Shown here in pieces: positions 453 to 62,100 of a DNA stretch of 64,000 nt. Location of the stretch: positions 8,929,292 to 8,993,291 of the forward strand of contig CAJINV010000003.1 of assembly GCA_905178155.1 (NCBI GenBank), read 5' to 3'. Numbering within the stretch: position 1 is the stretch's first letter; each line of letters opens with the position of its first letter. The position numbers were made by a program, and so were the translations under genes. The notes under the pieces were generated by a model. The model worked only from the letters and a program-made list of their open reading frames with translations, did no database searches and was not told where the DNA came from. This stretch comes from Amoebophrya sp. A120. Lineage: Eukaryota; Protista; Dinoflagellata.

Positions 453-1317
453 AAGCCGGTGCATGGCCAACACGTCACCGCCGGACTTGCGAAATTGCAC
501 GTGCAAGGTCTGTATCAAATGCAAAAGTGTCTGGGTCTGGAAGAATGCGCGATTTGTCATGCAGCTTTTCCATGACCCACGAGGTCTGGAATGCAGGACC
601 TAGCATGACAGATTCTGTGCGATCTCTATCATGCCTATCCTGCACGAGAAACTCCCTCCCGACTTGGTCAAAACTGCACGACTTGTGGTAATCATGCAAC
701 ACAGATTTTTGCATGATTCAGATTTAGCATGACAAGTTGCAATCTTCCAGACCCAGACATTTTTGCATTTGATAGTCTGCACGTCCGGGTCCTCCATGGT
801 GGTGTAGATCCAAATGTTAGTATCGTAAGGAAAAATCCCCCCTCCCCATACTGAAAACGTATACTGTCGGAAATTTGTGATGCTGATTTGTGGTCGCAAA
901 TCGTGTCTGCCTTGCAAGAAAGCAAACCCAGAAGGCCCCCCGCATTATGCAGGCGGTTTGTGATCATGCTGTTGGGCCTACAGCATGGACTTTTGTCATG
1001 CCGAGCGCCTAGGCCAAAACCTGTCCACTCCGGCTTGATACGAGCCTGCAGTCCTCTATTGCAAGACAAGGCTTATTTGTGTACGCAAATCCAGCATCAG
1101 AAATTCCATTTTGATATGGGGAGGGGGGATTTTTCTCTTTGATAGTTAGTGGTGCGACCCATCATCCCTGCCGTCTCGCAGCACCACCCGCCCACGGCCG
1201 AGTACGGAATAGTGCGGAACTTGTAGTTCTTTCGAACGTTTCGCCAGTGGATGTACGCTGTACAGGGAATCCCGCCGAAACCCGACTTGTCGAAAGGGCT
1301 TTTGCGCGGCGGGCCAT
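453..1317 (-). CDS. Second copy (paralog or alternative haplotype) of the internal exons of the bacterial-type PH domain gene
   Basis: 1145-1317 matches 2600-2772; 453-512 and 775-820 match 2390-2476 and 2586-2604. The two exon differences I saw are synonymous (AAG/AAA, CTT/CTC). Intron homology extends to ~189. Truncated by the N gap. Confidence 0.75.
513..774. mobile_element. TIR introner (family B), 262 bp, TSD GTCTG
   Basis: 32-bp TIR tatcaaatgcaaaagtgtctgggtctggaaga / tcttccagacccagacatttttgcatttgata with 1 mismatch; gtctg at 508-512 and 775-779; empty site caaggtctgcacg present in the other copy near 2441-2453. Confidence 0.95.
821..1144. mobile_element. TIR introner, 324 bp, TSD GTTAG
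   Basis: TIR tatcgtaaggaaaaatcccccctccccata / tatggggagggggatttttctctttgata; gttag at 816-820 and 1145-1149; empty site aaatgttagtggtg at ~2596-2609. Confidence 0.93.
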
Positions 1318-1417
1318 NNNNNNNNNNNNNNNNNNNNNNNNNNNNNNNNNNNNNNNNNNNNNNNNNNNNNNNNNNNNNNNNNNNNNNNNNNNNNNNNNNN
1401 NNNNNNNNNNNNNNNNN
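1318..1417. other. Assembly gap (100 N)
   Basis: Run of N; true length unknown. Confidence 1.
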
Positions 1418-1543
1418 TACCGAGCCTCGCAGTATGATCCACTTGAATGCAAGGCAAGGAGCTTCATGTATTTGGAACCACACCTGCAGCAACACAATAA
1501 ACTAAACGTTTCTGAGAATGGCGGGGCACTTTTCCTTCTGATA

Positions 1544-3410
1544 GCTCTCCACGGCGAACAGCCGCACCCGGTTCCAGAGCAACGAAATGTAGCCAATGCT
1601 TCGACCCGTCAGGCCCCGCTTGTCGACGACGAGCACCCTTTTCGTAGTCAGCATCGTCGTGTCGCGGCCGGACTTGTAGGCCATCTGCACTTTCTCCTGC
1701 GGGTGCAGGATATGAGCCATGGCTTGCTGACACTTCTCGGGGCTCAGCTGCGACGCATCCCCCTTCAGGAAGTCGAACACCTTGCTCGCAGCGTATCAAA
1801 CAGAAACAAAGCACACTCATGAAAACCATAGCCGTCAAAGTAATCGAATAAAGTACACGCAGTACATTTTTGCAGTCGACAAGACGCGTTTCGGATGTAA
1901 AAAGAAAACTACGACCGCAATACCGTCAGAAAAAACGGCGCGTGTAGGGCATGCACTTCGCAAGATATTTATTGTGATGTGAGTGTGACGTCATGGCGTG
2001 GGTGTGCTTGCTTCGTGTGTGATACCGTGCCTTCCTCGGCGACCGGCATCACGTCCTCCCCGACTTCATCCACGGCTCCAAAGGGGTCAGATTTGGGCAG
2101 CGCGTATTGCGTCAGCAGCCTATTCTAAGAAAATATCCCCCCACCCCTTCCGATGGTGGTTTGACGTGGCCACAGGTCAGATCAATGTTAATAGGTACAT
2201 ACATATTAGACCCAGGATCAATCAATGTAAACGGTAAAGAAGTAGCCACAGCAGCTGCCTCCCGTAAATCATTGCCATTGCTAGCACTTGGCGAAAATCT
2301 TTAAGTTTTACCGGCACTCTCACTAATGCTGCAAGACATCAAACCATTGTTTTTCGGTATTTCGGGCGGGGAGAGTTTGCATCTTGATAGAGCCGGTGCA
2401 TGGCCAACACGTCACCGCCGGATTTGCGAAATTGCACGTGCAAGGTCTGCACGTCCGGGTCCTCCATGGTGGTGTATATCCACAGAAAAAAACCAATCCA
2501 CATCCATTTTTTGCATGACAAACACAGGATTTTATGTATGTTTTGCATGAGAAATTGGATGTGGATGGGTGTTTTTTCCTGGATAGTGTAGATCCAAATG
2601 TTAGTGGTGCGACCCATCATCCCTGCCGTCTCGCAGCACCACCCGCCCACGGCCGAGTACGGAATAGTGCGGAACTTGTAGTTCTTTCGAACGTTTCGCC
2701 AGTGGATGTACGCTGTACAGGGAATCCCGCCGAAACCCGACTTGTCGAAAGGGCTTTTGCGCGGCGGGCCATCTTTGAGCAGAATGCGCTTGTTCGTGAA
2801 CAACAGCTTGCGCTTATCCACTTTGAAGCGTAGTACCCATTTCCGACTACTTGTCATGCCAAAGCACGCGCAACGTGTACCATGGGGCTGCACTAGCGAT
2901 AGCGTGCCACAGTAAATTCATACTTTCTTTTCTTGTATAAATTATGCGCGTCCAAAACCAAAACCGAACTATATATTTCATCTCGCCTGTTTATTGTCCT
3001 GCTTCACATGAGCATGCAAAAGCTTTTGATGACTGCCTCAACAACAATAACAAATATTCCATATAAACGAGCAGGACTACGTCCTCTACGGCAAATGTGG
3101 TGAAGAGGAAATGGGTATGTTTTCGCTCAGGATAGCGCTGGAAAAACTTGTACGCTTGCAACACCGTTTCTCCCTCTTGCAAGGCTCCTGGGCACTTGCC
3201 GCGGAGACTCTCCTCGGCCGCTTTAGCGTTGCGGGCACGCATGTCTTCGTTCGTATTGCAGGCGCAGTCAAAGCACTTCTTCCCACAGCCCGGGTCTTGG
3301 TAGACCACTTCGTCCGTCATTTTCACAGTGTTCTGACGCTGCGGTGGAGCGGGGCGAGCTTCAGCTTCTCCCCCAGCCGCAGGAGCAGCCTTGGTTTGTT
3401 CGTCGGTCAT
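1544..3410 (-). CDS. Multi-exon protein with at least two tandem bacterial-type PH domains (bPH_1/YjqA-like); 3' end lost in the gap
   Basis: Exons 3410-3135, 2809-2586, 2471-2390, 2115-2025 and 1788-1544 join in frame: ...GETVLQAYKFFQRKLLFTNKRILLKD...IPYSAVGGWCCETAG...IWIY...DVLAMHRLLTQYAL...FDFLKGDASQLSPEK...EKVQMAYKSGRDTTMLTTKRVLVVDKRGLTGRSIGY. This fits the recalled bPH_1 pattern (AYKxxRDxxxFTxKRxxxxDKQGxTG...IPY...ETAG). Confidence 0.85.
1794..2024. mobile_element. TIR introner, degenerate TSD (CAGCG/CCGTG)
   Basis: TIR tatcaaacagaaacaaagcac / gtgcttgcttcgtgtgtgata; removal with 5 nt gives in-frame EEGTASKVFD. Confidence 0.8.
2121..2389. mobile_element. Aged TIR introner, TSD CAGCC/GAGCC, shared by both gene copies
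   Basis: tatt...gata ends with a weak IR (tccccc/ggggag); removal gives in-frame AMHRLLTQYAL; the homologous intron is at 189-452. Confidence 0.75.
2477..2585. mobile_element. TIR introner (family D), 109 bp, TSD GTGTA
   Basis: TIR tatccacagaaaaaaaccaatccacatcca / tggatgtggatgggtgttttttcctggata; gtgta at 2472-2476 and 2586-2590; empty site ggtggtgtagatcc at ~798-811. Confidence 0.95.
2815..3134. mobile_element. TIR introner (family E), 320 bp, TSD GCGCT
   Basis: tatcc...tacccatttcc / ggaaatgggta...ggata; gcgct at 2810-2814 and 3135-3139; removal gives AYKFFQRKLLFTNKR in frame. Confidence 0.9.
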
Positions 3411-4365
3411 CCTCGTGGAAGATGAGTGTGCCGCTTCCTTTTAGGTGCAGGGAAAGGAAAGAAAGGTAGCTCCCGATCTTCGAGAGGAACTGTTACGTAT
3501 TTGAAAGTGCGAAAGAAGATTGCCGTCGATAGTTGCACTTGCACTTGCGTTCGGGACAAATAGAAATAGAAGAAAAATCTATTTGTATTTACTACTTTCG
3601 TAGTTCACAACTTGTAGCTGGTTTCTGGAAGATGAAGTGCGTAACTGGGATTAGAATTAGAGTGCTGAATGGGGAGGTAGAGCGGGAAGAGTTGAGAAGT
3701 TGAAAAGAAGGACACTAGGAGCGCCAATCCAGAAAGTTTCCTGCGATTACAAATATGTAAAAACTTTTCTCGAAGATGCTAGTACATGTAAAACAATTTT
3801 ATTGCACACGTGTTCTTTTATTCCGAAATGCTTGAGCAACGACCAACTTTGCACGAATTTTGCCTGAGCACGTTTGGCGCACGATGACGATACGATTACA
3901 CCGAAGAAAGTTACATACAAGCGCTGCAACACGGCGCGCAAACTAGAAATCAGTAACAACCGACAACTGGTTCGGAGACTCTGACTCACCTTACATGAAT
4001 GTGTTACCGTTGCGCTACAGATGTACTCTTCGATGATTTTCCTACGTCTACTGTGTCTCTGACACGACCGAAGTAAGTTGCGAAAATACTCATCATGAAC
4101 GAATCATCACTGATACCAAAACGCTCGTCCAGGGAGCGGGACTGCACGATGACACGTGCTCGAAGTGGACCGAAAGCACCCGACTTTTTCTCGTCCCGAG
4201 ACTAGGGAGAGCGGCAACCGATCGCTTCAGTCTTTTCCTTCGACATGGTCTTCCTCACAAGAGTGAGACCACTTCCACTAAAAATTAAAATAAAGTTGTA
4301 ATTTGCAATAAATAAATGCTCGTGACCTCATACATCAGCTGACTGGGGTTGTGCTGGGTATCTGT

Positions 4366-5133: not shown

Positions 5134-8100
5134 CTACGAAAGGCTGTAACCTCCGCGAGAAGATACTTGTGACGAGCCTTCGTCGAGCAACTTCATCACA
5201 CGTCCTGAAGAGTCGTCCCCGTCAGCATCACAAAGGGGTGAACAAGGGGCCGGATTGAAGTTGGGCACGAGTGGTTGTATTTGTTTGTTCCTCTGAACCT
5301 CGGGCACTGATTGTCGCAATGTGGACGAAGTAGCACCAAACAACTGATCGCGTAGCGGTAGCGCCGGATCTGCCGCTCGGGTCGTCACCTCTACAGCGGA
5401 AGTTTTCGATTGCAGATGTCCTTGAAGGGAAGCAGCGTAGTGGTGGTTCCGCACCTTTTCAGGAGCGGGGCGGTTATCGATTGCACTGACGGAGAGCAAG
5501 TATCGTTCCTGGCGCCATCCTCCTTTGTCGGTGCCGTCGCTATCCTCATCTACCTCACTAGTCCCCAGTAAAGGAATTGCCTCAACAATCTCGGATGAAC
5601 TGGCGTTCTCTACATGTTTATGTTTTGTGGTTGGGCCTAGTTCCTTCTCCTTGCTGAGGATGAAAATCTTGTTGCTGGCGACTGCTTCTCCACCATGTTC
5701 TTCCTCTTCATCATCTACATCTTCATCGACATCCAGCATGTCGGACTCGATCTATCAGAATATAGAAATGTCCCGCGTCCAGCTCACTTACTAAACTCAA
5801 GAGGAACATTTAGATTGATTTCGATGGTGATGCATTGATCGATGGAACGCTTGCGCTACGTACAGGTTCTTGTACTATGACTGTCTGACAGAACCCTTTT
5901 TTTCATGAAAAAAGATGCGGAGCTGCTTGCTTGCACGTCCTAGAAACGGAGATGCAACGGGCGCTAGGGACAATTTTCTTTCTGGTAGAACCTCCGCACC
6001 GAGTGATAGCTCAGGTACCGGCGGCGACCGCGCAACATCTCTACCGCGACTGGCGCTTCTGGTCTCCGCAGCGTCGTCAGAAAAAAACCTATCGCGTTCG
6101 TGATCAACATGATCTTCATCTGGTGTTAGTACTTCGCCATTGGTTGTACAGGGACTGGAAGCTACCGTCATTCCGTCATGTTGCTGCTCGTCTTCTGATT
6201 GAGCTTCATCATTTTCATGTGATGCCACCAAGCGCGCGTTTCGATTTTCTTCACGGTGTCGTAGTTGTCGGTTGTCCGAGGAGAGAGCGTCGAGATCTCC
6301 ATCTGGCGACATCTGCATCCATTGCCTCTGCCTGGGAGTACTACTTCGGTCACGCTGTGTGGCTGCAGGGCGGACAGCGGAGGCGGAAGATGACGTGACT
6401 GCGAGAAAGCGATTGACTCTTTCTCGTGCTGTGAATTCCTTTGAAGTATTTGCTCTACGGGCTGAGTGCGTTAGATAGCTGGTAGAAGAAGTATGTACCG
6501 GACGATCTACATGGCCGAAAGACTCCTCGCGCTGACGTTTCATGCGCCGGCCGTGCAGAATTTCTCCTACCGAAGAATCCTCGCCAAGCTTCGTCGTCTC
6601 TTGTGCTCCTAGTCCTAGGAAAAATTGGACTTCATTACTGCTAGCACCAGCTGGCTCTCGTTCCCTGTTTGCGGCCTCGACTTGTTTGGCTGCAGCGTTC
6701 GGCTGGGTTTGTGTAGATTTCGCCAGTGCCAGAGCTCGCCCTTCGGGAGCTGCCAGACGCACTATCGCTTGCGCATCCGTGTCGAAATCAGGTTGAGCTT
6801 CTGCAGCCCTCTCACACTTTTGCTCACGGCCCGTCGATTCAACTGCTAGAGAAGATGACCTATGCATTGCAAAAGTGTCCTCTCGATAGTACTAATTGTA
6901 AAAATCATAAGTTTTGCACTAGCACTAGCACTACGAACTGGCTTAGAAAAATGACAAATGGAGACGTGACAAATGGACGTCCACGTCGATCTGTCTATGC
7001 ATGACTGCGATCACAACTGCTTGCGAGCGCGATAGCGATACTTTTGCAAAGGATACGACATATTTGGACGTGCGAAATGGAATCCTTTCCCGACGTTGGC
7101 AGCTTCATTCATTTTCATTCGCCGTCGCTGCATCGCTAACGATGATGAGGAGGAGCCACTCTGGGACCCGGGCCGCCCACCAGAGCAGGGAGTAGAATAG
7201 TAGAGACTCGTCGATGCTGGAGCGGCCCCGGCCGCCTTATGATGTTCAGCCGCTTGGCGATATTCTTCTGCGTCTTCTCGTTGGTCTTCTACTCCTTGAG
7301 TCGATGCTGGATCACGCGAACTCCTCACCTCGTTGAGGACCAGGTTGGTTTTTCCGGCAGGCGACTCAAACTTCGCGATGAGCTTGCCGATGACACCCGT
7401 TTGCTTTGCGGACGCGTTCTTGTGATCATACTGGCTAAGCTGCGGCTGCGAGGTAGCGACTTGCATATGCGTTGCGCCGGTTCGCAGTGGCGTTGAATCG
7501 GTTTCGGTAGCATTAGCTTTAGGCTCAGCCGCGGCAATCGGTAGTACATCTCGTCCATACGGTGCTGCATCAGTCACGGCCAAATTTTGGGACTGCTCGC
7601 TTGCCTTTGCTGCTACTTGTTCATTATCTCGTCGATGCAGCGACTCGCCGCGCCGTCGCTGTACAGGGCCTCCTGGCACCTGACGCCCGAGCCCAGCCGG
7701 CGTCTTCGTGATGTTGTTCTGCTCCATATCGAGAAACTCATCTTCGTGCAGGTTAGGTCGGGGAGAAACCACGACCGAGGTCATGTCCAACATGCTTGTT
7801 GTCGTGTCACTTGTCGATGTCAGATCAGGCTGGAGGAAGGTTTCCTGCAGTTCTTGTTGACCCACGACAACGAGTGGCGTAAATTGTGCGTCCTCAGATG
7901 ATGCAGATGCACCGCGCTGGAAGTTCTTGGTAATTCCACTTCGACTGATCGCCGCAGTGTTGATGCCTAGGCCGGCGGTTTCCATCCGCGTCTGTGCGAC
8001 ATCTTCTTGTTGCAGCTCCGCACTGCGCTGCAAGACAGACGCGAGGCAATGCTGGAGATTAATTAATCCCTTTGACTCGAAAACCGAATGCATTAACTCG

Positions 8101-11100: not shown

Positions 11101-14100
11101 TCCCCAAAACAGAAGTTGCCGCCGAGGCTCGCGGAGCGTTGTGCTCGTGGTCTCCACGTCAACCGACTGGAGATGCGTAAAGGCTTCAAGCACCCCGATA
11201 CCCTGCTCGAGGACATCCACGTCCAGCACCTCCAGTCTGTTTCCAAACCTCTGCTGCAATAAAGTCAAAACGCGAGCGTCTAGTACACCATTTACTTTAC
11301 CGCCGACCTGCCCGGTGCCACCTGGTGCATGCGCTGCGTCCGTTGAGTTTTCGTTTCCCGCTGTACCTGTAGCAGGATTCGCGTTTTCCTTTATTCCGTC
11401 CATACCTGCGTTCGCCTCGTCACTCTGTGTTGCAGCTGCCGCACCGGCTGCTGTAGTTCTTGTGCTGTAGTTCCGTTCCAGAATCTTGCACAGCCGGGCG
11501 CGCGCCTCCTGATCGCTTTTGCTGTGACGAAGGTACGGCTTCAGGTAGCGTGCGCTTCCTCTGAGCCGCTCGAAAGCAAGGGTGATGCAACGGAAGAACT
11601 CGTAGGGATTGAGTGTGCGCAGTTGAAATTCGCGACGAAGGTCTACCCCTTGCGCATAGGCGCTGAAAATACCACGGTCCAACATCGTCACCAGACGCGT
11701 CGTACTTGCTTCCAGTTGTCGCAGTCGCCCCATCTGCATTTGCTGGATCTTCTCCAAAATCCAGCAAAAAAGTATCACACTCGTATAAATTGCATACAAA
11801 GGCTGATCACAAAGTCGGTGAGAAGTGTGCAAAGAAGTTCAAGTTTGTCGATAAAGTGCTTGCCAAACTGGCGGAGAAGTTTGAGCTCCGGAGCAAAAAT
11901 GAATCTCACAAAGCGGCAATGCTTTGCCGGTACTGCAGACAAATCAAAAAGAGAAATGCGTCTTTGCGTGTAGTCAGTGAAGAATAACGCGTGAAGCCAT
12001 CAAAAGTCCGCGACTTTTGCCTTTGTCCTGAAGATTATCCAAGCTGTTACCAGCCGAAAACTTCAGTGACACTTCACGGAAACTAAAGCGCATGCTCCAA
12101 TACTAGAAGTTCACGCAGGCACTTCTCGCCAACCTCTGTCTGCACACTGCTCAACTTCAAGGACTCCACGACGAACTTGCAAAATAATTGGGTGACGTCC
12201 GCCCACAACTCGATCATCGTGGAGATCCGACGATCTGCGAGCTGCCCGTTTGGAAGTTGCAGTTGGTGAGGAGTTATTTGCTGAGTAGAGGTGCGCACCA
12301 GTCGAGAAGCCGGCAAAATGTCAATCCTTTGTACTAAATAGATACGAATGCAACACTTTTGCACAGGATATCGGAGTCCGTTAAGTGTCGTACGTGCTGC
12401 ACTTCCACCGCCTGCAAGCGCCCCAGAACGTCTTCCATTTCTGCGCGCAGAAAGTCTGCTTCCTTTCGGAGAAACTCGTTCTCGAAGGTCGCCTGGGTTT
12501 CATCATGTGCAGTTCTAGCTCTTGCTTGTTCAGTTCCCGAATCCTGGAAGTCGTGGCTACCTTGCAGTTGCAAGTTGAAATTCTCATATTCTTCAGCCCC
12601 TCGTGGTTGGACCATATCTTGTTGTCGCTCCTGGTCATGTTGCATTAGGACCGGCTTGTTCTTCAGGGCTTGGCGGACCAAGTTTTCGATGTCACTGAAC
12701 AGCTGCACAGAGCGCTGGGCGGTCTCACTCCGCGCTTGGTCCTGTCTGTCTTCACTGCCTTTGGTAGGCAAACTACACTGCGATGAATGTGAAGAAAAAG
12801 CACCAGCGTGGTTCAGGTTCTCTTGTGATGCTGTCCGAGTCACAGACACAGCATCCACTTGCTGTGCAGGAGCTCCACTTAGTTCTATTCCAACATTCTT
12901 CGACGTCCGTGCAGCCATTGAAGTTTCCGCCTTTGTGATAGTCGCAGAGAGAAAAGCTTGGACTTCGGACAATCCACGCAGAAGTTCCGCCGCCTGGTCA
13001 GGCGTGACAACAGAGTCCGTTCGCACTTCGTGACGGGTGGGCGATGAGGACGCATCAGCTGCAGTAAGAGCCTGTACTGCTGCAATCTCGTGGGTCATTT
13101 CCGACTCAGATGCAATTCTATCGATCTTCTCGACTTTTTGATTACTAGTTCCTGTGAAAGGAGCTGCAACCGCCGTTGCTGACGATGAAGGGGCGGCTTC
13201 TATGTCGCCGCCGCTTTCGTTCTGCTCTTCGACACGTCGGAGGAGTGCTGCTATCTGCTGCCAGAAACGCGGACCAACGCGCGGGGCATCTGGCCTCTCT
13301 GTCAGCACCCGCTGTGCGTTTTTCTGTAGATTGCGAAGGTACTCCCGGTCGCGGAGGGAAAGGACGTTTCGTGTGCGCTGCAGCGCGGGAGAAGTCTGTT
13401 GACTCTGGTCATTCATTTTCATCTGAACCAGCGAGTTCGAACCATTTGGAAGATTGATGTTCGCTGGTGCGTCGTTGCGCAGTCGATCTACTTGCCCGTC
13501 GGATTCGTACAAAATCTGTAGTTGCGCGGCGTCGTGTTGAAAGCGTTTGCGTTGATCCCCTTGCGCCTTCGTGACGCCCTTCTCGACGACGTTACCGAGG
13601 CGGCGGGTCAGCACGCGGACCAGACCATTGATCTTCTCGTCGTCAAGGGTCAGCTCCTTCTCGTGTCGCAGCAGCCGCAGGAAGGATGTGAGGAGCTTTG
13701 CGAATTCAGTGTCGACGTCTCCCCGCAAGCCACTCACGTTAACGGCGGGGAAATCCGGCAAAATCACTTTCGCAGCCGCTGAGTCTCTGCCGCTCGTCGT
13801 CCCAGCCGGCGGAAGACTTTGTTTACCTACACTCACAGGTGGCACTACGTCGGATTCTTCCGCATCAGAGAGCATAGACATGTGGAAATTTTGATCATCT
13901 GTGACGAGCACAGGAGACGAATAAGCCACGACCTTGCTTTTTCGCTGCTTCGGATCAACCGAGGGCGGCGCGGGAGGCGAGCTACTACTTCTGTTGCGCA
14001 GTGTGACGACAATCTTGGGAGATTTTGTTTTCGAGACGCTTTGGTCAAGATGATCATCTCGTCCAGCTTTTTCAGAGTTCCGGGCAATAACTGCAGATGA

Positions 14101-17100
14101 TGAGGAGGAGAATGTAGTGGCAATTCTTTCACCTCGTGTCGCAGGACGAGCGAGAGCGGGCGCCGCGGGCTCAAGTGCGGAATGCTCTTGCTGTGGCTGC
14201 TTCTCCACGTCTTGCCCACGTAGCACCTCCGGGTCTCCTTCGTTCGTTCTTCCTCCTGTCGCGGTGACAACAACATCCGGTTTGAGGTGATCCGCGGCGA
14301 TGCCTGCCTGTTCGAGCTTCCACACTGCAACCGAGAGACGCTTCCCCAAGTCTTCGCTCTGCTTCGCAATGGAGATGTGCGAGGCAATGGCATCGCAGTC
14401 CTGTTCATGCCTGCGCTCGAGGTTCTGGAGTTTCAGGAGCAAAAGGTCAGTTTTTCGCTTTTCAGCGTGATAGGAAAGCACAACGCTCTTCAGCGCACCG
14501 CCGTCCACAGCTATGTCTACCGCTTGATTTTCATTTTGTCCTTCTTGTGACTCCTGATCACGCGAGGGAGTGGGTCCTGGACCTGGTTCTTCAGCTTGCT
14601 TTGCCGTTTGTTCTTTTTGCGTCCGAAGCAGCCGCTCCGGGTCGTTCCAGTCTGCATGTGACAAGAGCGCTGTTCCATCTTGCACAACTGCCCTGGTCGT
14701 AGTACTTGCGCTTGTTGTATCTACTTGTCCGCGAGTCTGCACATTCACCGCCGTCGCCAGCATTTCCAGAAGGTGATCATTTTCTCGATCTAGCTGCTCA
14801 TTCTCGCGCTGCAGCTCGATCAATCGGTGTTCCATACCGATGCCAGACTGCCCCGTCCGCGGCGGCGCAATGGTCGCATGATCACCTCCTTCTTCATGAT
14901 CATGATCCAATTCCGCGATAATCTCGTGCTCCTCCGCATCACTAATATCAACCTTCTGCTCCACTCTTTTCGACGAACTGGAACTTCTACCATGAACTTG
15001 CGGCTCCTGTCGCAGCTCCTCGATGAGTGGTTCTCCGGTCGCGGCATCGTGAAACGTCGCGTTTTCGACAAAGGCGCTCGCAACCGAGACGGCCCGCTTT
15101 TTCCTGACATGTTCCACGTGTGTCGGCGAATGCAGCTTGTCATGGCCCGAGTACTGACCCCCGAAGCTTCCTCGCTGGTTGGAGTGCCAGACTGAAACCC
15201 TAGGCAAACCTACCCCGCTTGAATCAATACTTCTCGTGGCAATCGAAACGGGATGTTGGGCTGCTGCAGAAGATGGAGATCCACTCGATCTGCCACTCCC
15301 ACTCGCTGTTGCTTCTACAATTGTACGAGCGGACTGCGGCCTCCCTGATTTGGAAGGTGGGCTACCTGTGCGTGCGAAGATTCGGTTATCTTTGTTCCGG
15401 GGATCCGCCTGTTCTTCTTCTTCCTCACGGAGAACACGGGAACCTGGTGCAACGATCCGCTGAAGCAAAGTATCGTCTGGAACTTCGTTTTCCTTTGTAT
15501 TGTCGTAGAGAAAATATGAGGTGGGCAGCCCGGGGGCGTGGGCGTGGCCGCCGTCGCCACTTGCCGACCGCGGGAGAACTACTTCATCTCGTCTCTTGCC
15601 CTGCTTTGGTCGGGCGGGCCGATCATGCGTTTTCGAAGCATCCACTTTTCCCCCTACTACAGTCGTTGCAATGAACCCCGGCACTCCAACGTGCGGGACG
15701 TACCTCTGGTCGATCTGTTTCGCGCGGCACTGGAGCACTTTCTTTTCTTCGCCGCGGGATGCGGAGTGATAGAGTGGACTATTTGTCTTTTGGAGCGTCA
15801 ACGTGGCACCAAGCAGCGAGTTGTGCACGGTCTTCGTGCCTTCCTCCTGATCATGCGAAAAGGACTGCTCCCGTGCAGCCGGAAGTTGTTCCGAAGATGA
15901 CGAAGAAGAAGAACTAGCTCTGCGGGCAATAGCGTTAGCGCCGTCCTCCACCCCCTCCGCTAACAAGCATGAAGACGCTCCAGTATCTGCAAGGGCTGAG
16001 CCTTCGCCTTTCCGTTTTTCTCCTCCTCCCGCCGTTGTTGGGTTCAGGGTTCCATGCTGGTGCGAGGCGGGCGCGGGGTGGGAATCGGCTACAACACCGC
16101 TGCGACCGCTTTCGTTCTTTCCCTTTCCGGCAGTTCCGTACTCATTTTGTGTATTTTCGACCAGAATTTCAACATCGAGCCCGGGAGTTCCTCGAACGAG
16201 CCATTTGTCCGTCTTCTCGTCGCGCTCTACTACGAAGTCCAGATCCCCGGACCCCGTGACCCCAGCTTGGTAGAGGCGCACGCCGGGCGTTTTCAGCGCA
16301 AGGACCTGGTAATACCGCTCTAGGGCTTTTGACACCATCTCAGCCAATAGCATGTCTCGAGCCGTGTGCAATTGGGCAATTCGCTGGACGGTCGCCGACG
16401 TGTCTTGCATAATATGCTGCACTGGCCCCTGTGTGTCCAACACAACATCTTTGGAAGTAGCGGTGTCCACATTTAGCGGATCATCTTCCGACGCTCGACT
16501 CTGATGAAAATAGGGGTATGTCTTAAGGTGACTGAACTTCATTTGTATCCTGAGTGAAAACGTCCCGCCCATCCCATAGCCGAGATGGCAAATCAATGCG
16601 CTAGAGAACTCTAGAAGCTTTGTGGACGCCGCGTGACAAATTTGGGGGAGACGCACGCGCCAGCGTAGTGAGTCGTGTTTGGCTCTTCAAGTAGGTACGT
16701 CACAAATAGTTGACCACTTTATCCGTATGCGTATCCGGATTCCAGCATGACAATCTCAAGACCACACCACTAAAATAAATATACAAGACCACACCACTAG
16801 AAAATGCCTCTCGTTCTCATGTCGCTCTCGCTGCGCATGAGAAACGGAAAGTAAGATAAAGATTTTACATTAACACCTTAGGCATAGATGCAGTAGCATC
16901 TATCTCTATGGACTTGCAACATGACAAGTACGGAGTGAGCAGCACGTTGTTTTCTCCATGGATAATCTGATCCTCCAGAAGCGACCTCCGGTGAACCAGG
17001 TCGGCTCTGGTATAATCAGCCTGCTTTTTCGTGTGCAGTCTCGAAATATCGTCAGTGATGGCCTGTAGCTCCGTATTGTTTTCCGACATCCATCGCATCA

Positions 17101-37538: not shown

Positions 37539-38130
37539 TCAGATTGGTACTGCATTGCAGTACAGCTTAGGCTGAACAATCTTCCCACCGTTCTTATTTC
37601 GCATGATATAATTCATAAAGTATTCCATACATGTCCATGTGTGAAGGTGAAGTAGATACTTGTGTTGCAATGCATACGCTACAAACTCGCGCTTCGCGTC
37701 CGTCGTTGCCATCCCGATGAGCTTTTGTCTAGCATCGTATTCGGACTTGGCCGTTGCGTTGAACATTCCCGTTGGTCTCTCGCCTGTTACGTCGCCCTCC
37801 GTCGCTTGCTTGTGCAGTGCCTAGAAGTAGAAGAAAAAGCAAAAAGAAGTCCTTGTCGTGCGTCTATACTTATACTATTAATCTATGTATCAGCTAGAGC
37901 TATTGATGATCCAGTCGGTGTTGTAGTTCTCGCATGCACGTACAGTACTAGGCTCCGTGGAAAGACGAGATGAAGGAATCAGCGAAATTTTTGGAGTACT
38001 TTGCAAAGCTTGTCTCCGCTAGAGCTGCTTTTTGCCCATGCTTCCGCCGCTCGCCCAAATTGTGCAGCATCGGCGTCAGTGACAGTGGATATCTTATCAT
38101 ACGCAGTCCCTGCTTGCCCTAAGCCGTTTT
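37539..38130 (-). CDS. Acyl-CoA-binding (ACBP-like) domain exons, probably the C-terminus of the COPI-associated gene
   Basis: Manual translation AQFGRAAEAWAKSSSSGDKLCK | ALHKQATEGDVTGERPTGMFNATAKSEYDARQKLIGMATTDAKREFV fits the ACBP consensus (ALYKQATxGD...RPGMF...AKWDAWxxLxGM..EEA..YI); GT-AG intron at ~37821-37999. Confidence 0.75.
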
Positions 38131-47292: not shown

Positions 47293-50200
47293 CTAAGTCG
47301 CGCTCATGTCCGCACGAATGCAGCCTTTTCCAAACCATGTGTGCGTCTGCCGCCCGATTTCCGCTGCGGTCGCACCAAATCCAGAAGCAGAAAGGACAAG
47401 TGCCTCCGTGAAAAACCCTAGGGCATACCACTGCGCCCACACCTCTGCCATACCCACCGCCAGCAGAGCGAGCGAGCTTCGGTCCAAATGTACGACTGCG
47501 TTGCTGAATCTTTGCCGTGTCACGGGGTCGTGAAAGCTTGGGCCGATCAGTTTGCCACTTTCGTACCAGTCAGCGAGTTCCGGCCAGTCTTCTGTCTCTG
47601 CGTCCGCAGCCAGAAAGAAACGCGTAGTCCGCGGGTCCAAGCGCAGATCGCTCTCGACCTGCGATGCGCAAGCCAGAAATTCCGCAAGTTCTTCGCGTTG
47701 GTGGCGCTGCGGGTCGCGCCACCGGTCCGAAGACGCATTGCCCGCGCGAAAATGTATCCCGATCAAGCTGTGCACCTGATGCTGGTAGTAATCAACACGC
47801 TCGGCGCTGTGAGACGAAGAAGATGAAGATGCTGAAACTGTTTTTGTTATGTTGCTGGTAAAAATGCCTTTCTCCGTGCTGTTGTTGTTCGGCAACTCGG
47901 AAGCTGATACCGCACCAGACTTCTCTAGAGATACTTCAACATTGTCAGCTCTGGGCAGTTTGAGCTGTGCGACGCCAGGACTCAGATGTTGATTTTCGGG
48001 GCTGGTGCTACTTCTAGATTTCGTGTAAATTGGGCCGTCTCGGACGTAGTTGAACCAGATGGCGATGCGGTTTGAGAGCAAATTTGTTGGCTGGAATAGA
48101 ACCTCAAAGAGATGTGCGTGCAGGAAGGGAGTGCTGAGCAGAATCTCGCGCACTTTCGACGGCAGGTTTTTTCGGGCCAAGTCCGACTGCAGACAGGGCA
48201 TGGTAATGCGCTGGTTGCTGTGCAGAACCCAGTGCTTCTCGGGGGAGTCGCGAACGTCCGCAATGGCTTCCTCGAGTTTGTCATTACGATTGGCGTGCAG
48301 GCCGGGAAGGCCGACCGACCCACGGAGGCGCCAGTCCACTAGACCCGTTGGCTCTAATAGGAGACCAATCGGCAGCGGACGGGGCGAATCGATGTAGAAC
48401 GCGCGGTTCGTCACGAGTGCGAGCATAAAGAGGCCCAATATCCCGTGAAGACGATCACCATGTCCTCCACAGAACCCGATGGAGGCACACCGATACACGA
48501 GAACTCGTTCACTTTTCTGGTTTTGCTTGATGAATTGCAGCAGGACATTGTCCTTTTCCAATGCGCCCGATTCTCCTCGCGTGTCGTCGCCCCTGCTCTC
48601 CACCTGCTGCCAATGCCGCAAGTTGTAGTGTCGCCACGTGGTTGATGATTGGAGCGATGGGTAGTCAGCTTGACCCTGCTGAGGATGATGGTGAGACGAC
48701 AAAACCCCCTCCTGTTCCTGCAGCCCTGATATTTTGTTGATCTCTTGCATCCGCAGGTCGGACCTCTTGTTTTCTTCTACAAGAACTCCCATTTGCCCTG
48801 AACTGCTGACGCTGCGTGTAACTGTGATCTCGCGGGCCGGTGGTCGCATAGCCAGGACCTCTGTCATCGCGGCACTGGAGAAGGAATCGCAAGAGTGTGT
48901 CGTGGGCATCTCCAAAGGTGTAAGTGAGGATTTTTTATCTGCGGACCGATTGCGCGATACCTCTTCAACAAGCACCTGCCGAAAATCCTGAATAGTCGCA
49001 TCGATTTCCGCTCTTCGCTGAGGATGTTCCTTCGGTAGGTCTACACTTTCGAGTCCGAGTTCTGGCACACGATATACAGTTTGAAACTGGTCTGGCTCCG
49101 CAAACCGCGACATAAGCTCACAGGGCGTGTAAAGGAAGAACCGCCGCCACAATAAGACACACCCTCGAAAGTGCTGACATGTCGGCCATAGCGCCGCGAG
49201 GTTGCTGCTCCTTGACACCACAATCAGTTGCATATTCCTATTCGGAGGAAGCTGTTTTTCGGCGACTCTTCCCGACGAGTCTGAAGCGTCTCTGTCCGTT
49301 ATCACAGGAAAAAGTGTAGACGTAGACGGTTTTAAGAAAATGCAACAAAAAAATTTTGTGAGCACCCTAGAGGATATTACGAATGCCATAAAAACACGTG
49401 CTCACATGGCTAGCTATTGCGGGACTCCTTTGTAGCTTAATTCATTTGCGCTAGCTAGTGCAAAAGGTCTGGGCGCCGTCCTGCCGATCCATCAAGTGCC
49501 GCTCGAGAAGACCTGTCTGGACAACCAATGTTCCTGGCCCGGGGTTGTAACGCCCCAGAAACAGGCCGGCTGGGTGGAGTCTGCAACTTTCCGGCTGAGA
49601 GTCAGGCGATTCTCCGGCGGGAACGTCAGCAGGGTTTCCCTGCGAGAGGGCTGGGCCGCCGCAAATAAGGCGCTAACCCAGTTGGCGGAGGCGAAGCTGA
49701 TTGACAGTGAAGCGATGCGCCTGCTCACGGCTCGCGAAACCCTCGCAGAAGCCCTGGCGAACTGTGTTGATTGTCTCTAGGGAATTCGTCTGCTGTTCAA
49801 ATTTTGCGACTTATCTGCTCACCATTTTGAACAAAAAAACCGGAGTTCGGAAATTCGCGGGAGATTGGAAATTTTGCCTGCCTCCAAGGCCAAATTTCCA
49901 AGGTACCTCAAAAACCGTCTACATCGACTCGAGACTGCATGGCATGGTCCATGTAGACGGTCAAAAAGTGGCCCTGACCAACTAAAAACCCCAGAAAAAC
50001 CGTCTACGTCGCGTCTAGACTGAGTGCTATGGTCGATTCAGGGGCTCCAAAAGGGTCGCCAGTCCCGGGACCCCGTTTTGGAAGGGCCGAATCGACCATA
50101 GCAGGCAGTCTGGAGGCGATGTAGACGGTTTTTTGCAGACGTGGCTTTTTTGAGCTCAAAATGGTGCCAGATGAGCACTTTTTTCTGCCGGTCTCGGGGA

Positions 50201-53200
50201 GACCCTGAAAAACCGTCTACGTCGCATCTAGACTGCATGCTATGGTCGACTCAGCCCTTCCAAAACGGGGCCCCGGGACTGGCGACCCTTTTGGAGCTCC
50301 TGAATCGACCATAGCACGCAGTCTAGATGCGACGTAGACGGTTTTTCTGGGGTTTTTTGTTGGTCAGGGCCACTTTTTGACCGAGTGGCGAGCGTCTGGG
50401 TCGCGGTGGCGGAGTCGGAAGAGGGGGAGGACGCAGAGGAAACGCGGCAGTTTGCACGATGCGATCGCCTTTTCCGGGTCCCCTACTCATGCAACGTTTT
50501 TCAACGTTGCGACCGGGTCCAGGAGGCGGCACCGACGTGGAGGCGAAACAGGGCCAAGCTGCACAATTTGCCTTCCGTCGCTGGCGCCCTTTCGCACTAG
50601 TTATCTAAATTCAATGCAGCTACATTGGAGTCCCACGGAAGCTAAGATCATGACCTACTTGATTTACACCCATTCAAAATTCCTACAGGGCGCGTAAAAA
50701 TTTTTTTTTCGAAAAATTGAAAAACCGTCTACGTCTACACTTTTTCTTGTGATATCCGTGGCCATAGCGGTCTCGGCCGCAGCTCCATCAGCAACAACAT
50801 ACTCACTCAAAAATTCCTCCCATGCCTGTGCGTGCGCTCTTACCAGAGCTTCATCTGCACCGTCGGGTATTGCAACCATCAAAAAAGATTTTCTTTCTGC
50901 AGCTTGCCGATGCCCGAAACTGTTCGTCTCGTGTCCACTTCTTGTTGTGGTTATCGTAATAGTTCTTTCTGTTGCGGTGGGCATATCCACGGATGTGGCT
51001 CCTGTCGCGTCGCCTTGTGCTACTTGGGTCCCGCTCTCTATAACGGTAGCGCCAAACGTCAATTCGACAAAGTTGAAACTCTTTGGCTTTGCAATGCATA
51101 CAATCAACACCAAGAATTCCTAAGCCGTGGCGCGTGGCGGCTTTTCGACGTAGCAGTAGAGCCGAGATCCAATAATTTGTCGCGCTGCTTTGACTTTGGG
51201 CGTGGAGTAGAGGTGCTTTTGTCATGCTCCTTCGCAGCTCTATTCCCAAATCCGACCAATCTATTTACCATGCATAGGCCTCATTTGCCTGCTCCCCAAT
51301 ACAGGCACCTGGCCGTTGTGCTCTGCGTTTTATTTTTGTGCATCCCGAAGTATTTCAACTTAGTGAATTGCGAACCTGACGCTCCTTCCATATCCTCGAT
51401 GGGACGGGGCCAGCGCAGGAAACACGGAGGCTCCCATGGCAAAATGTTTTCGAGTAAGGTTACAACACGTCCGACGTCGCCCATAGCGCTTTGGATCTGT
51501 GCTCCCAGATTTTCTTGCTCACGCAGAAGGAGTGATGCAGAATCTACAACATCGTCCCCGTTGTTCCCGTTATCTTCTGACACGGCAGCAGCTGCTGCTG
51601 CTGCAGCAACTGCTCTGTCCGCTGCTGCCGTTGCATGATAGCCGATGCTCATCTGCATAGCTCGGTTGAGGGAGGCTAAGAGACTCTGGTCGCCGCCAGG
51701 AACACCCTGCACAATGGCGCGGTCGTAGTCCCGCAGAACCCGGCAGAGAGGCACCTCCGCGTCCAGCACCTGCTGCCGCTGTACGAAGAGCGCTTTCAGA
51801 TCCGCACGAGTCTGCGGTGGCACAATGAGGAGGGCGTGGGCCCAGGACTGCTCTGGCCCCTCCCCCTTCTGCAGGTGGTACAGCAGCAGTAGCAAGGTTT
51901 CCGTCTGGTGCAGCAACAAGTTTCCGACCTCCAAGATCAGCGACATTGTGGCGTCCACCCATGGCTTAAAAGCGTTCGCATACAGGTGCCCATAAGTCAA
52001 GTCCACCACCTGGTGGTGGGCCCCAGCTTCACCTTCATCACTATGATATCTCTTCCTCGTGTCCAGATTATCATCCTGGTTCAGCATGTGGTGGTCAGCC
52101 TTGGCGCTTGTTTTCCGATCCATCTTTGTGTCGTTTAACGCGTCCTCGCCTGCCGCCCGCTCATGTTGGTGTTGCCCCTCGACTACAGCGGTTCTGCCTT
52201 GTGGGTAGTTCAGAACGTGAGGGAGGAGATGCTTGGACTCAAAAATGCGCCCCCGCTGCAGCTCCTCGACATAGGCAAACCGGCATTGATCATCCTGCTC
52301 CAAAATGACCGCATCTGTCATCATTTGTCGGCGCCAAACTTCCTCCGCGTCTTCGCTTGCTCGTTTCCAGTGCTCCAAAAGCTTCTTTTCCCGATTATGT
52401 CGCGGATCTAAATGTGCCTCTGTGCTGGATTCGGAAGTGATGCGCTGCTTTGGATCCGCCCCTACTGCACCTGAATACTTGTTGTCGTGGTGGTGGTGCT
52501 CCTTCTCTACTATTTCGGCAGCAGTTGAACTGCCCCCAGTGCGCCCTGATGTAGGGTCGTCTTGATCTTCATCCTTCGCCGGCTTCATTGTGCCCATATC
52601 AGACGCAGGCCCGAGTCCGGTGGCGCTGTCGGATATTGGGGGGAAGCACGTCGCGCACAGGACAAAACTCTCCGTGGCGAGCAAGAGAGCAGCCCACTGC
52701 TCTTGTAGCTTGTTGGTCATTTGGAAGGACTGGATGCGACTTTTGATGAGATGCGTCGCGCAGTACTCATCCGATAGATGCCCGGTTTGCGCCAAAAACT
52801 GCGCGTGGCTGTCGAGCCGGTCGTTGAAATTACGGTTGATAAATTGCCACTTGTGAACCAGTTCTTCGTGAGCCAGCCTCAGGTCAGTGCTGTTCTGGCA
52901 GCAAGTCGCCACATTTTTAGTGCTACTGTTCTCGTCTTCAGGGGACCAGGTATTACCTCCTCCGTCGCTATACAAATCTTGTGGACATATGTCACGTTCT
53001 TGAAAGACTCCCATGTGTTCGATCGCGCCTTGTTTTTCGTCCGCGAGGAAAAATCTGCCCGCATGCTGGGAGGCCCACGCCAAATGAACAGGCACCGCAT
53101 CAGCCGAAGTACACCACTGCTGCACCAACGAAACAGGGTGACGGGGAGCTGTCGGCGTTGCCCGAATCGTCCCATCAGCAGTGATTTTATCTTGGGCAGA

Positions 53201-54804: not shown

Positions 54805-54863
54805 CAAAAAAGGCGCATTTCATGTCTTGGTCAAAATAAAGCGCTGTATCACATTTCGAAGAG

Positions 54864-57660: not shown

Positions 57661-59120
57661 CTTGATCTTTCGCTTTCCTGGGTTTGTCCTCTTGTAATAA
57701 ATTTAGATTCTGGGTAAAAAAAACCTGTCTTGTTCACTATTATCTTCATAGACATGATGCCTCACGTCGTTCACCACTGACTCGACTAGCTCTGGTACTA
57801 TTTTCTTAACAAAGTTTAAATACATCTGTTTCTATATCTGAGTCCAGGTGCTGGGTCACATTTGCTCTTCGACTTCTCCTTTTGCTTGTGCGTTTGCCGT
57901 TGCCCTCAATTGCGTATTTTCCGTTTCACTATACACTAAAAACCCAATTTTAATTTTTTTCAATTCCAAGAGGGAGTTCTTGTAGTTCTAATATGTAATT
58001 TAAATTTTCTTGTTTCGACTCAACTGGCACTCGGTTTCTAACACAGCAAACGTTTGGCTTTGGACACCAATTGAGCGAGCGGAACAAACCACTCCGATTC
58101 TCGGGAAGATATGCATCTTCGCCCATGGCCATGCTGCGCGACAGGCAACGGCTTCCATTAATTATGCTGCTGGCGGTCGTTCTTTTATTTTTCTATCGAC
58201 AAATTCAAATTTCGCTTCGAAAAAAAGTTCGCAAACATGAATGCGCTGTATCTGACGGTTGAATTCCGATAATTGTAGGACTGCATGTGAAGCAGGTGGT
58301 GCACATCTAAGTAGGTACAGAACAAAGACGTTGACGACACTGACGATGCGCCGAATAAATGTCTCTGTTGTCTGCTTTTTTTCAAGTCCGGTGACCATTT
58401 TTTCCCCTAGCGCTAGCTTACAATCGCTCCATTCATCTCCGAGATGAGGAGCTCCTCGTACATGGTCAAAAATCTGCTTCATGGTTGACATCATGATAGA
58501 GAATGTGACCAGTTACAGCTCGAACGCATCATCTCCTTGCATATGCATTTCTTCTCAGCACACAACAAGCGTCACCCCGTGCTATGCCTTTTAAAATTTC
58601 AAGTTTAACATCGAATGTAAGCAGCTGAAGAACCAACATGATCGACAGATGGATGGTCGGGGATGAAATGGAAAGCTGTATCTAGAACAACCATGAATTA
58701 ATATAAAAAAGCGATCGCAGGTTATCATGTTGATCGTGACGGCGAGTACAAGTACACGGCGCCTCGTCCATCAAGAGTCTGTGATGTGACAACGGACACA
58801 CAAATCTTCCTGCGCCGCACGAAGCAAGAAAGAAGAGCACCACGAGAAGTGTTGCAAGAAATAAAAGGTAAACAGGATGAGGAATGTTTTACTGCTACGC
58901 ACCTCCTCCAGCGCTAGCATTGGTTTTGGTTGCCTTTCAACTTCATGTTAAAAAATTTCTTGGTCTTGCTCTACACATGATAGGTATGTAAGTAAGTATT
59001 TGCACACCAAAAACGAAATCAGGCAAAGAGCTGCATCCTCCTGCTAGAGACGGGGACGGCAACAAGTCAGCACTCGCCATCTGAGGCTAGAAAAGGCGCA
59101 CTCCTTTTTAGAAGTGAGTC

Positions 59121-62100
59121 TCAGAATTCAATGGTGGCGATGACCGGGATATGATCTGAGATGTTTTCCGCCCACAGTTCGTCCAGAGCTCGCGCGTAGA
59201 CCACGCGCTTTTCACCCGCCACGAAAATGTGGTCAATGTCGAGCTTGCGGGTGGTGGGGCTGCTGATGCGGGTTTCCGGAAAGGAAAACTCCCGTGTCTT
59301 ATTCATGTTCAGAACGTGCCGCAACTCGTGCTCCTCAGGAATTGGTCCTGCGTACTGCTGGAATCGGGGTTCCAATCTCTGTCCTCTGTAGTTCATGTCG
59401 CCCATAACAACTGCGCCCACTATTTTTCCTGTTTGCATGGCTAGCGAAACCTCCTGCGCAATCTGCGGCCAGTACCGTGGACGATGAAAAATATTACCGT
59501 GCGCATTATACACGTAAATGAATCGCGCTGGCACTGCTGCTGTTGGCGTTCCGGCTGCTGTTGTTTCCGCTGGCAGGGCGATGGTGACGCGAGAGTAACC
59601 GAAGGCGGGAAAGGGAAAGTCCGAAGGCCAGGTACCCACCAGCGACTCAGCTTTCCGCAGAGAAACTCCTGCGTGGGTAACAATCGGCTGCCCGCCGAAG
59701 CTATTGGCCCGTACTTTGTTGCCGTACACAAACGCGCACCTCGCTGGAGTTGTCGTTGAAGATGATGACGCCAGCTCCGAGGAGGATGATGACAATAAAG
59801 CGCTGTTGCGTTGACAAAAGGATGCGTAGTCTGCATTTTTCGTTTCGTCCTGGGGTGTTGTTCCCACTGCCGCGAGATACAATCCGAAGTCCCGAGCACC
59901 CAAAATTGGGTGCTGCGCTTCCAGTTCCTGTAGTCCGACCACGTCAACGCTGGGTGACATCAGGCGCGACAGCTTGTCATATAGCGCGCCAAAGTTTTGT
60001 TGGATGCTGAAATCGCTGCCAGGAAAGCCCCGCTGCGCATTCCAAGTGAGGAAGGTGAGCTGCGTGGCGTTCGCGGGGCCTGCTGTGCTCCGCTGATCCA
60101 CAATGGAGTCGGTATGCAAGTGCGAAAAGAGCGGGTGCCGCACCAGGGTCGGCGCCGGCACTGGGAGAAATACGCCAACCTCCCCCGAGAAAGCGGGGCA
60201 CCAGAAAGCCAGCACCACACACGCAAATGGTAGCGTCTCTCCCACCGCATAGTGTGGTCTTTTTCTAGCAGGCATCTTCGGCACTTCTACTTCGCTTGTT
60301 TGCGGCGGGATTGGAGATGTTGACGCCGATGACGTGCTGCCGCCGGTGCGTCGTGAAGAAGTTCCAAGCTCCTGATCCGGCGCCTCGGCACCTCCTCCTG
60401 AAGTGCTCGCACTGCCATTCACCTCCGTTGCCCCAGGAACGCCGGGCCAGGTGCACACGACCGCCAGCCCCATAAAAATAAGGCCCCAGCAGGATCCGAG
60501 TGCGAAGCAGGACTGTATGGTAAGGATAGGCAAATTCCACAGAAATCCGACAATCCACACAACATACTGGAGTACGAAACCGCGAACGACGTGGTGCTTT
60601 TATGCAAGGGATGAAGCGAGTGATATTAGACGAGCTAGGTAGACCCTCGAAAAATATCATGATCCTTATTGTTCTCATCTTCATCATAGTCGTCGTTATG
60701 ATCTATCCTGCTCCGCGGGAAATTCCGTAGCGGGTTGAAAATACAGCAATCATGTCAAAGCGCAGCAAATTGCATTGGCAAAGCTGTAGCTGTAGGATGA
60801 CATCCGCATAAAGCAGAAGCAGCGCCTGAACTAGAAACAAACACTCGCTTCCCCTTCATAGCTTCTGCAGCACAATCTGCTTGCTGAAGCTTGTAGACTG
60901 AAGCAGTCGTGCCAGATCGATGGCCAGGAAGACCACGAGGGCGACAAAAGCGAGGTTAAAGACTGCGGCACTCGCGCTCGCGGCTTCTGCGGGTACCAGT
61001 GCGGTCTCGGAGTTTTCGCGAGAAAGCACTTCCCACACAATGTAGTAGACCGTAAGAGCCACGAGCGAAAGCAGGACAGGAACCCCGTCTGGGCGTACCC
61101 TTTTCGGCAAAGGTGGATCTGCGAGCTGGTCGTCGGAGTGCTGTGCTTGCCTCATTGCACTATCTGCATTCGTGCGGTGCAACAGGACTTGAACGAAGGT
61201 ATCGCCCAAAAACTGATACAGTAGTGTCACCGGGCCTCCGAGAACCACATACACGCCGAAGAAGAAGAGACCGGTTGGTTTCTGCTCATGCCCGTTCGCG
61301 TTTGGGTAGCGAAATAAGAACATCGGGCTGCCAACGTAGAAGATCACTGCGCCCAAACTTGTTAGCAGAAGCGACAATAGAGCAGACAACACCGCTGGGC
61401 GCCATGGCAGGTTGTGGATGATATTGCTAGCAGTAGAGTCACTGCTCCCTTCGACTTCACCCGTGATGTGGCGTGGCTGGTTCTTCTTGTCATTACATGC
61501 TTCATCATGATCATCGTCAGCTCTGTCGACGTCCTGACGGCCTTCATTCCGTGGCTCCGGCCGTTCTTCCTGCTCTTCTTGCCGTCGAGACCACCGGTAC
61601 AGCCCCAAGATAGTGGCGCTCACCAAGCCGCACACCAGCAGAAAGAACCAGGTTCCGTGCAGAATCGGGTTCAAACTTCCCGTCGCGCACTTCATAGCAT
61701 ATATCAACGAGGTGAACATCGGCGTATAGCCAAGATACTTCCCAACGCGCGGCAGTGCAAGAGTAGCTCTCGCTGAAGATGACGCAGCCTCCTTGCCTTT
61801 CATTTTTGCCGAAGCCTGCTGCTCGTCTGGAGCGGCGGTCTTGTTATCGTTTTCGAGAAGGTCAAAAGACCAGTAGACGAAGAAAAAATTGATCCAGATG
61901 CAAATGACGCAAAACGGGCGCCATTGGGTCAGTCCCATCAGCAGAAGACTCGGGGGTAACACGTAATCCAGCAGCCAGTCCCGGCGCGGTTCTACAAACT
62001 CACGAAGCAGAAAAAGCGGTCTGCAGCATCGAAAATTCTGGAAGGGGCAACACCCTTCTTGGTGGTGTCCTGCTGTGCGTCTCGTCGCAGTGTTTTGAGT

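Follow-up and report, generated by a model that had tools for sequence, protein, structure and literature searches.

Background

The closest described system to that considered here is the set of 'introners' of the marine parasitic dinoflagellate Amoebophrya, where more than 60% of introns are non-canonical and 29,850 introns contain the motif of strain A120 (Farhat et al. 2021, PMC7789003). As described in the accessible text of that paper, introners possess inverted repeats of 8–20 nucleotides (nt) and direct repeats of 3–5 nt, the A120 motif being TAT, seven nt and at least three A, with support from RNA; in the available part of the data set of Gozashti et al. (2025), most A120 families among 19 of 58 rows are classed as terminal inverted repeat (TIR) DNA elements. 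How these introns are removed without GT-AG ends or a detectable U1 is regarded as an open question by both the 2021 paper and a 2024 review, as far as their accessible text goes. This report concerns 18 such elements in a stretch of 64,000 nt from Amoebophrya sp. A120 (contig CAJINV010000003.1, 8,929,292–8,993,291, forward strand; hereafter 'the window'), which has a single N gap at 1318–1417, and the position at which they are cut from transcripts.

An original prediction, made from the letters of the window alone, described about 17 TAT…ATA insertions of 100–1455 nt in seven genes. The observation and the range of lengths were confirmed; the count was revised to 18 elements in approximately 10 minus-strand genes, the limits of which were partly inferred, after relaxed and profile scans were combined with RNA joints. 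Amoebophrya introners had been cited as an analogue; these are indeed published, and those of the window belong to that system itself, in the same species. What is already known for A120 comprises the elements with their motif and their loss from transcripts; the contribution made here is a testable refinement, namely a probable cut 1 nt before the element and 4 nt after it. No explicit statement of this 1/4 register was found in the literature covered, which included two reviews and had subscription papers and figures outside its scope. Section 11 and the legends of Figures S21–S23 of PMC7789003 (Figure S23 mentions '1-5' nucleotides) may already imply it.

Removal from transcripts and presence in DNA

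Contig runs were aligned to positions 27350–47300 and 1420–17300, which contain 13 of the 18 elements (designated by their first position); 513, 821, 49300, 60601 and 62790 lie outside both stretches. Among the joints of the RNA-type contigs, all from one sample, 16 were listed; 10 were ordinary GT-AG introns, found in the same genes as the elements, and six occurred at elements. All six listed element joints skipped the element plus 5 nt: 143 nt at 27548 (in RNA-type contigs only), 236 nt at 37446 (one shared letter), 105 nt at 42475, 313 nt at 42637, 240 nt at 5753 (no shared letters, three of four runs of the sample) and 200 nt at 6861 (three shared letters, three of four runs). Five of these joints cannot be GT-AG, while that of 6861 can; the predicted independence from GT-AG was supported. 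Indirect support was obtained for three further elements, since contig pieces ended at 45289 and 46074, and the length of contig record 11 fits the loss of 401 nt at 32943. The protein models P0001 and P0002, assigned to Amoebophrya sp. A120 by NCBI and 99.8–100% identical to exons of the window, omit 32943, 60601 and 62790, each with 5 nt, and orthologues or paralogues were continuous at 513, 821, 2477, 11758, 49300 and 60601; no A120 model for the gene containing 49300 was found within the length range searched. None of the runs recorded as RNA contained the stretch; in two raw RNA runs labelled as this species, just 79 and 2 reads partially matched an element end, which speaks neither for nor against removal. 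At 4943–5491, RNA-type contigs that differ at a few positions and come loose at 5491 show that near-identical paralogues are expressed elsewhere.

None of these element joints was seen in the single DNA-type run, which may be the source of the window itself. Its contigs were unchanged across 27350–39665, 40805–45052 and 45264–47300, and spanned the seven elements of that stretch, although 45026 only partly. The elements are present in DNA and absent from transcript contigs. The original prediction had allowed for excision at the DNA level, and TA-containing ends with a transposon origin do recall the internal eliminated sequences (IESs) of ciliates. Excision from DNA at some life stage is very improbable: the DNA contigs carry the elements without any joined form, the asymmetry of the cut has the same sense whichever way the element is oriented (see below), and the introns of the A120 genome were identified by comparing RNA with an assembly in which they are present (PMC7789003). 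In favour of such excision, only one DNA-type run was compared, and contigs drop rare variants.

A hairpin combined with a direct repeat is a known signature of artefacts caused by template switching of reverse transcriptase, and all RNA data used here are cDNA. Nevertheless, the joint at 5753 has no shared letters, 17 of the 18 elements would, if retained, introduce stops into every reading frame, and homologues are continuous at the six sites noted above; the joints have only a marginal chance of being such switches. It had been claimed that removal of the element plus 5 nt restores the open reading frame (ORF) in each case. Transcripts do lose the element plus 5 nt, but 2477 departs from the claim, since this element with its 5 nt is in frame, is free of stops in two frames and is read through by the host ORF, so that the frame does not depend on its removal. 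Frame tests cannot separate +5 from +2 or +8.

Position of the cut

The cut can be placed where the direct repeats have decayed, and is expressed here as k, the count of upstream-repeat bases that stay in the exon. The junction of 5753 was placed exactly at k = 4 by RNA contigs from three runs, giving an intron that reads CT..TC; k = 1 would have yielded GT..AG, yet was not used. For 32943, the residue found in P0001 is obtained with k = 4 and no other value. The position of the cut was established at these two sites. Three other junctions were informative: 37446 allowed k = 4–5 from its RNA joint, 6861 allowed k = 1–4 (k = 1 being GT-AG), and 46080 allowed k = 4–5 if 433 nt were skipped, the other side of this joint being absent from the listing. 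The original prediction had proposed four degenerate repeat pairs (1794, 16546, 46080 and 60601) as a means of locating the cut, among which only 46080 proved informative, and then partially. The sole value compatible with all five informative junctions, two exact and three permissive, is k = 4.

Read along the transcript, the intron likely starts 1 nt ahead of the opening TAY and ends 4 nt beyond the closing RTA (N-TAY…RTA-NNNN). The predicted idea that the terminal stem sets the position of the cut was supported, while the fixed offset of 5 nt is split 1 + 4 and not taken from one side (k = 0 and k = 5 were excluded at 5753, 6861 and 32943). If cuts were independent and uniform, the probability of their agreeing on one position was 0.064 for five sites, 0.14 for four and 0.28 for the three based fully on RNA, and the register is accordingly a lead, not proof. 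Elements 32943 and 37446 have like ends in opposite orientations and share the same register, which points to a process at the RNA level, with the caveat that their genes lie on one strand.

An improbable alternative is that there is no fixed register, the cut falling anywhere in the duplication with GT/AG-like positions preferred where possible. The accessible text of the 2021 paper describes variable splice sites (PMC7789003), and annotated A120 families, among 19 of 58 rows of the data set, show many different ends; 6861 fits GT-AG and the present sample is small. Conversely, both exact junctions have k = 4, k = 1 was excluded at four of five sites (one half seen), and annotated ends within perfect repeats are slidable and cannot locate a cut.

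With k = 4, the dinucleotides of the 18 elements included a GT donor in six and an AG acceptor in one, and never both. The claimed lack of fixed splice dinucleotides is correct for +1, -2 and -1 of the intron, which are free; however, +2/+3/+4 are U-A-Y in 18 of 18 elements, by definition of the element end. If true, a fixed 1/4 register would replace 'variable splice sites' with one rule by which annotators could place tens of thousands of junctions; it would also yield predictions for a candidate branch A and for the termini of the RNA once excised, and explain why these transposons could spread through exons at low cost.

Mechanism of removal

It is favoured here, with modest confidence, that the fixed 1/4 cut is made by a modified, U1-less spliceosome of U2 type, guided by the terminal stem. 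The element ends would pair in the pre-mRNA, replacing the bridge between U1 and U2AF, and the stem would act as a ruler for the spliceosome. The donor would be read as N-U-A-Y, that is, the G-U-A-Y donor of the host in which any base may stand first; distance from ATA would define the 3' site, and the branch point could be one A of ATA (-7 or -5). Since the two ends resemble each other and 1 + 4 adds up to the duplication length, removal would leave no scar whichever way the element had inserted.

The element-end U-A-Y coincides with the canonical donor of the host, as the 12 canonical introns examined (10 from joints, two from piece ends) all began with GTA and nine with GTAY, while +5 was not conserved. 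Among the commonest non-canonical motifs in Table S4 of PMC7789003, T occurs at +2 in nine of nine for A120, and also in nine of nine for A25, whose repeats begin TTA. The same table has A at -2 in eight of nine A120 motifs, and aligner bias may consequently have shaped these motifs. According to the accessible text of that paper, U2, U4, U5, U6 and U2AF are retained in A120, where neither U1 nor snRNP27 was detected; U1 is reported as missing from A25 as well, and as present in the strain with canonical introns. In yeasts, loss of SNRNP27K is reported to accompany a preference for U at donor position +4. The donor match, the T at +2, the missing U1 and the yeast pattern together favour a changed spliceosome.

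A credible, although less probable, alternative retains the same elements and register but assigns removal to a distinct nuclease and ligase that recognise structure, on the model put forward for Euglena, with the intron leaving as linear or circular RNA. The Euglena code was defined from non-slidable introns and mutagenesis as a paired triplet at fixed spacers (N3 CDG … CH'G N5-6), and factors outside the spliceosome are suggested for it (Nomura et al. 2025, PMC12501133, accessible text); similarly, authors working on diplonemids propose RNase III or tRNA-splicing routes. The Amoebophrya elements share with that system free positions at +1, -2 and -1, the GT-AG option at 5753 was ignored, and pairing of the element ends was strong (mean -28 kcal/mol, against -6 for the 12 canonical introns, a difference that is partly circular because elements were chosen for their repeats); an element's own partner ranked first in pairing for 12 of 18. 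Removal by nuclease and ligase leaves unexplained why U1 is undetected in just those strains with these introns, and why +2/+3 match the host donor, and several spliced elements have weak predicted stems. A bolder version can be offered only tentatively, and is rather unlikely: N1-TAY…RTA-N4 would be a second splicing code in A120, in which the stem is the ruler for a non-spliceosomal nuclease/ligase that evolved independently of that in Euglena, its spacers summing to the 5-bp (base pair) duplication such that either orientation yields a scarless intron, and overriding GT-AG where both are available.

Several points weigh against the modified spliceosome and the register that it is supposed to use. 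A spliceosome would find it hard to operate with free -2 and -1 positions, and AG was present at the acceptor of only 1 of 18 elements. The terminal stem would itself hide the donor. In local folds, the probability of the outermost pair exceeded 0.5 in only nine of 17 elements, and it was near zero in four elements that are spliced (6861, 27548, 37446 and 42637). The register depends on just five junctions that are informative, among which one comes from a gene model and another was seen on one side only; the genes are all on one strand, which does not separate transcript polarity from locus polarity; and the RNA status of the RNA-type contigs was a guess, their origin as cDNA being deduced from the absence of GT-AG introns.

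Elements in the window

The predicted arrangement of TAT…ATA ends and 5-nt repeats was evaluated by scanning for TAT…ATA pairs separated by up to 1500 nt, flanked by identical 5-mers and with nine or more of 12 end bases paired. This produced six matches, against none in each of 10 local shuffles; at eight of 12 paired bases there were nine matches, against a shuffle mean of 0.6. Across the full set (Table 1), nine flanking repeats are perfect and nine retain 2–4 of five matching bases. Exceptions to the end motif are TAC/GTA at one end of 5753 and ATT at one end of 11758. A set of 22 ends in the window fits TAT, seven loose bases, then at least three A. Five repeats named in the original prediction (CTAAC, TACAC, CGGAC, CAAAC and ACGGA) were said to permit no GT/GC donor or AG acceptor, and this was true at all six cut positions. 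All traced genes are on the minus strand, in agreement with the unidirectional clusters reported for the genus. No Rfam families were found in the window.

Table 1. TAT…ATA elements of the window, with their flanking repeats and the evidence for each (positions are those of the whole stretch)
Feature	Position	Strand	Repeat and evidence
Introner, 262 nt	513..774	-	GTCTG/GTCTG; 45026 family; 36-nt arms 94% complementary; empty site in paralogue 2445-2449; predicted intron 509-775
Introner, 324 nt	821..1144	-	GTTAG/GTTAG; empty site in paralogue near 2600
Orphan element end	1528..1543	-	Strong end-profile score, without matching repeat partner; partner probably inside N gap
Introner, 231 nt	1794..2024	-	Decayed, CAGCG/CCGTG; not bridged by RNA contigs
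Introner, 109 nt	2477..2585	-	GTGTA/GTGTA; empty site in copy 1 near 804-808; not bridged by RNA contigs
Introner, 235 nt, TAT…GTA	5753..5987	-	Decayed, CGATC/GAACC; intron 5749-5988 (CT..TC on gene strand); joint 5748>5989
Introner, 195 nt	6861..7055	-	Decayed, TGACC/CGACA; joint 6856>7057
Decayed introner, 613 nt	11758..12370	-	TCCAA/TCGGA; homologue P0010 aligns both sides; not bridged by RNA contigs
Introner, 419 nt	16546..16964	-	ATTTG/ATCTG; frame open ~200 codons either side once removed; not bridged by RNA contigs
Introner, 138 nt	27548..27685	-	CTGTT/CTGTT; joint 27542>27686
Introner, 396 nt	32943..33338	-	Decayed, AGAGA/GTGGA; probable intron 32939-33339; A120 model P0001
Introner, 231 nt	37446..37676	-	Decayed, CACTG/CGCTA; ends like 32943, opposite orientation; joint 37440>37677
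Introner, 100 nt	42475..42574	-	CTCCG/CTCCG; joint 42469>42575
Introner, 308 nt	42637..42944	-	GTCCG/GTCCG; joint 42631>42945
Introner, 263 nt, high-copy family	45026..45288	-	GTTTG/GTTTG; RNA contig piece begins 45289; 111 copies in second assembly
Introner, 428 nt	46080..46507	-	Decayed, GTTCA/GCACA; RNA contig piece ends 46074
Longest element, 1455 nt	49300..50754	-	TCCGT/TCCGT; 58-nt terminal arms; internal palindrome; frame opens on removal + 5 nt; homologue P0004 continuous over site
Introner, 260 nt	60601..60860	-	GCTTT/GCTTC; removed with 5 nt in A120 model P0002, exact position ambiguous; A25 orthologue P0003 continuous
Introner, 404 nt	62790..63193	-	CACGA/CACGA; removed with 5 nt in P0002; beyond the range of the original prediction

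Transposon origin

The elements are non-coding insertions resembling miniature inverted-repeat transposable elements (MITEs), with 5-bp target duplications. A transposon origin had been predicted, and was upheld by comparison of two tandem paralogues (189–1317 and 2200–2772), where filled and empty sites reveal 5-bp duplications at 513, 821 and 2477; each paralogue bears elements that are absent from the other, and each empty site has one copy of the 5-mer. These gene copies, which are a partial duplication and gained different introners after duplicating, had a weak match to a bacterial PH domain (PF08000, below the cut-off).

Elements 513 and 45026 are 72% identical and belong to the same family. 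When metagenome contigs were scanned with one end of this family, at least 128 loci were identified, and the 80 listed were all from one other assembly. Among 111 distinct copies with two ends in that second assembly, a perfect 5-bp duplication was present in 92 and one with a single mismatch in 13, while a 6-bp duplication was present in none. The letters of the duplication were near background composition across the 111 copies, and a target preference apparent in the repeats of the window had gone. A GT/GC-AG reading was possible, at any position, in eight of 210 copy-orientations. Of 199 distinct ends, 196 had TAT and 153–174 had A at positions 11–14. A wider scan of those loci gave 272 distinct candidates with perfect 5-bp repeats, 129 of them beyond the seed family, some of which are chance pairs. 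Restoration of the frame in the second assembly, a weak test, left 17 of 64 fully open at +5, against 10–11 of 64 out of frame.

The insertions were presumably made by a transposase. No transposase family was identified with Pfam in two ORFs of the 1455-nt element, which lacked any Pfam match, or in six ORFs of long candidates from four loci, and the atlas yielded no transposase. Subterminally, the 1455-nt element bears a 13-nt motif in several copies, and its interior includes a palindrome of 426 nt (49958–50383), as expected of transposase binding sites. One family member from the second assembly (L032:476–2934) has a perfect 5-bp repeat and approximately 2.2 kb of cargo with a 415-codon ORF (P0011), which matched neither Pfam nor the atlas and is possibly a captured gene or a piece of a retroelement.

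Other features of the window

A GC-rich region at 39633–40841, between two direct repeats of 67 nt, was multi-copy in DNA contigs and without RNA-type cover over 40004–40669; it is perhaps another mobile element. A DUF285 (PF03382) repeat protein, of a family named from Mycoplasma, is encoded at 54867–55853, and a membrane protein fused to an endonuclease/exonuclease/phosphatase domain (PF03372) at 59121–63430, for which the A25 orthologue has 33% identity.

Comparison with known systems

The elements agree with published A120 introners (PMC7789003) in their inverted repeats (TAT, seven nt, at least three A), direct repeats of 3–5 nt (5 bp in the legend of Figure S19), non-canonical ends supported by RNA, repeated families and the species label on matching proteins. 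They differ from that account, as far as its accessible text goes, in that it gives splice sites as variable and the border position as unknown, and argues against general mobilisation by a transposase, whereas here there was a uniform 5-bp repeat, with empty sites and a cut at 1/4. As DNA, they display the terminal inverted repeats, duplication of fixed length and empty sites of a MITE or non-autonomous TIR DNA transposon. The IS3EU/GingerRoot transposons (PMC10045372, PMC12730594) similarly have TA..TA (TAY..RTA) termini with terminal inverted repeats, but their duplications, in the accessible descriptions, are usually 6 bp and not 5 bp; given the lack of a transposase in the ORFs searched, the elements were left without assignment to that group.

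As introns, they lack the combination of GT/GC donor and AG acceptor that defines canonical U2 introns, and, unlike ciliate IESs, they were retained in the DNA-type contigs of the one run. The non-canonical introns of Fritillaria borealis (PMC13326754; reviewed in PMC11282704) are also transposon-derived, lack GT/AG and are handled by an altered U2 spliceosome; there, however, AG-AC/AT ends are preferred, U1 is kept and U2AF is duplicated, whereas here the ends are free and U1 was not found. The nonconventional introns of Euglena (PMC12501133), in the accessible account, likewise lack GT-AG and possess direct repeats, and their terminal triplets pair at fixed spacers; a MITE-like origin has been proposed for them. 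Their CDG…CH'G triplets (CAG/CTG) are found at spacers 3 and 5–6, a purine begins the next exon, circles are reported and the lineage is unrelated; the elements of A120 have TAY/RTA at 1 and 4, such that the geometry is alike while the code differs.

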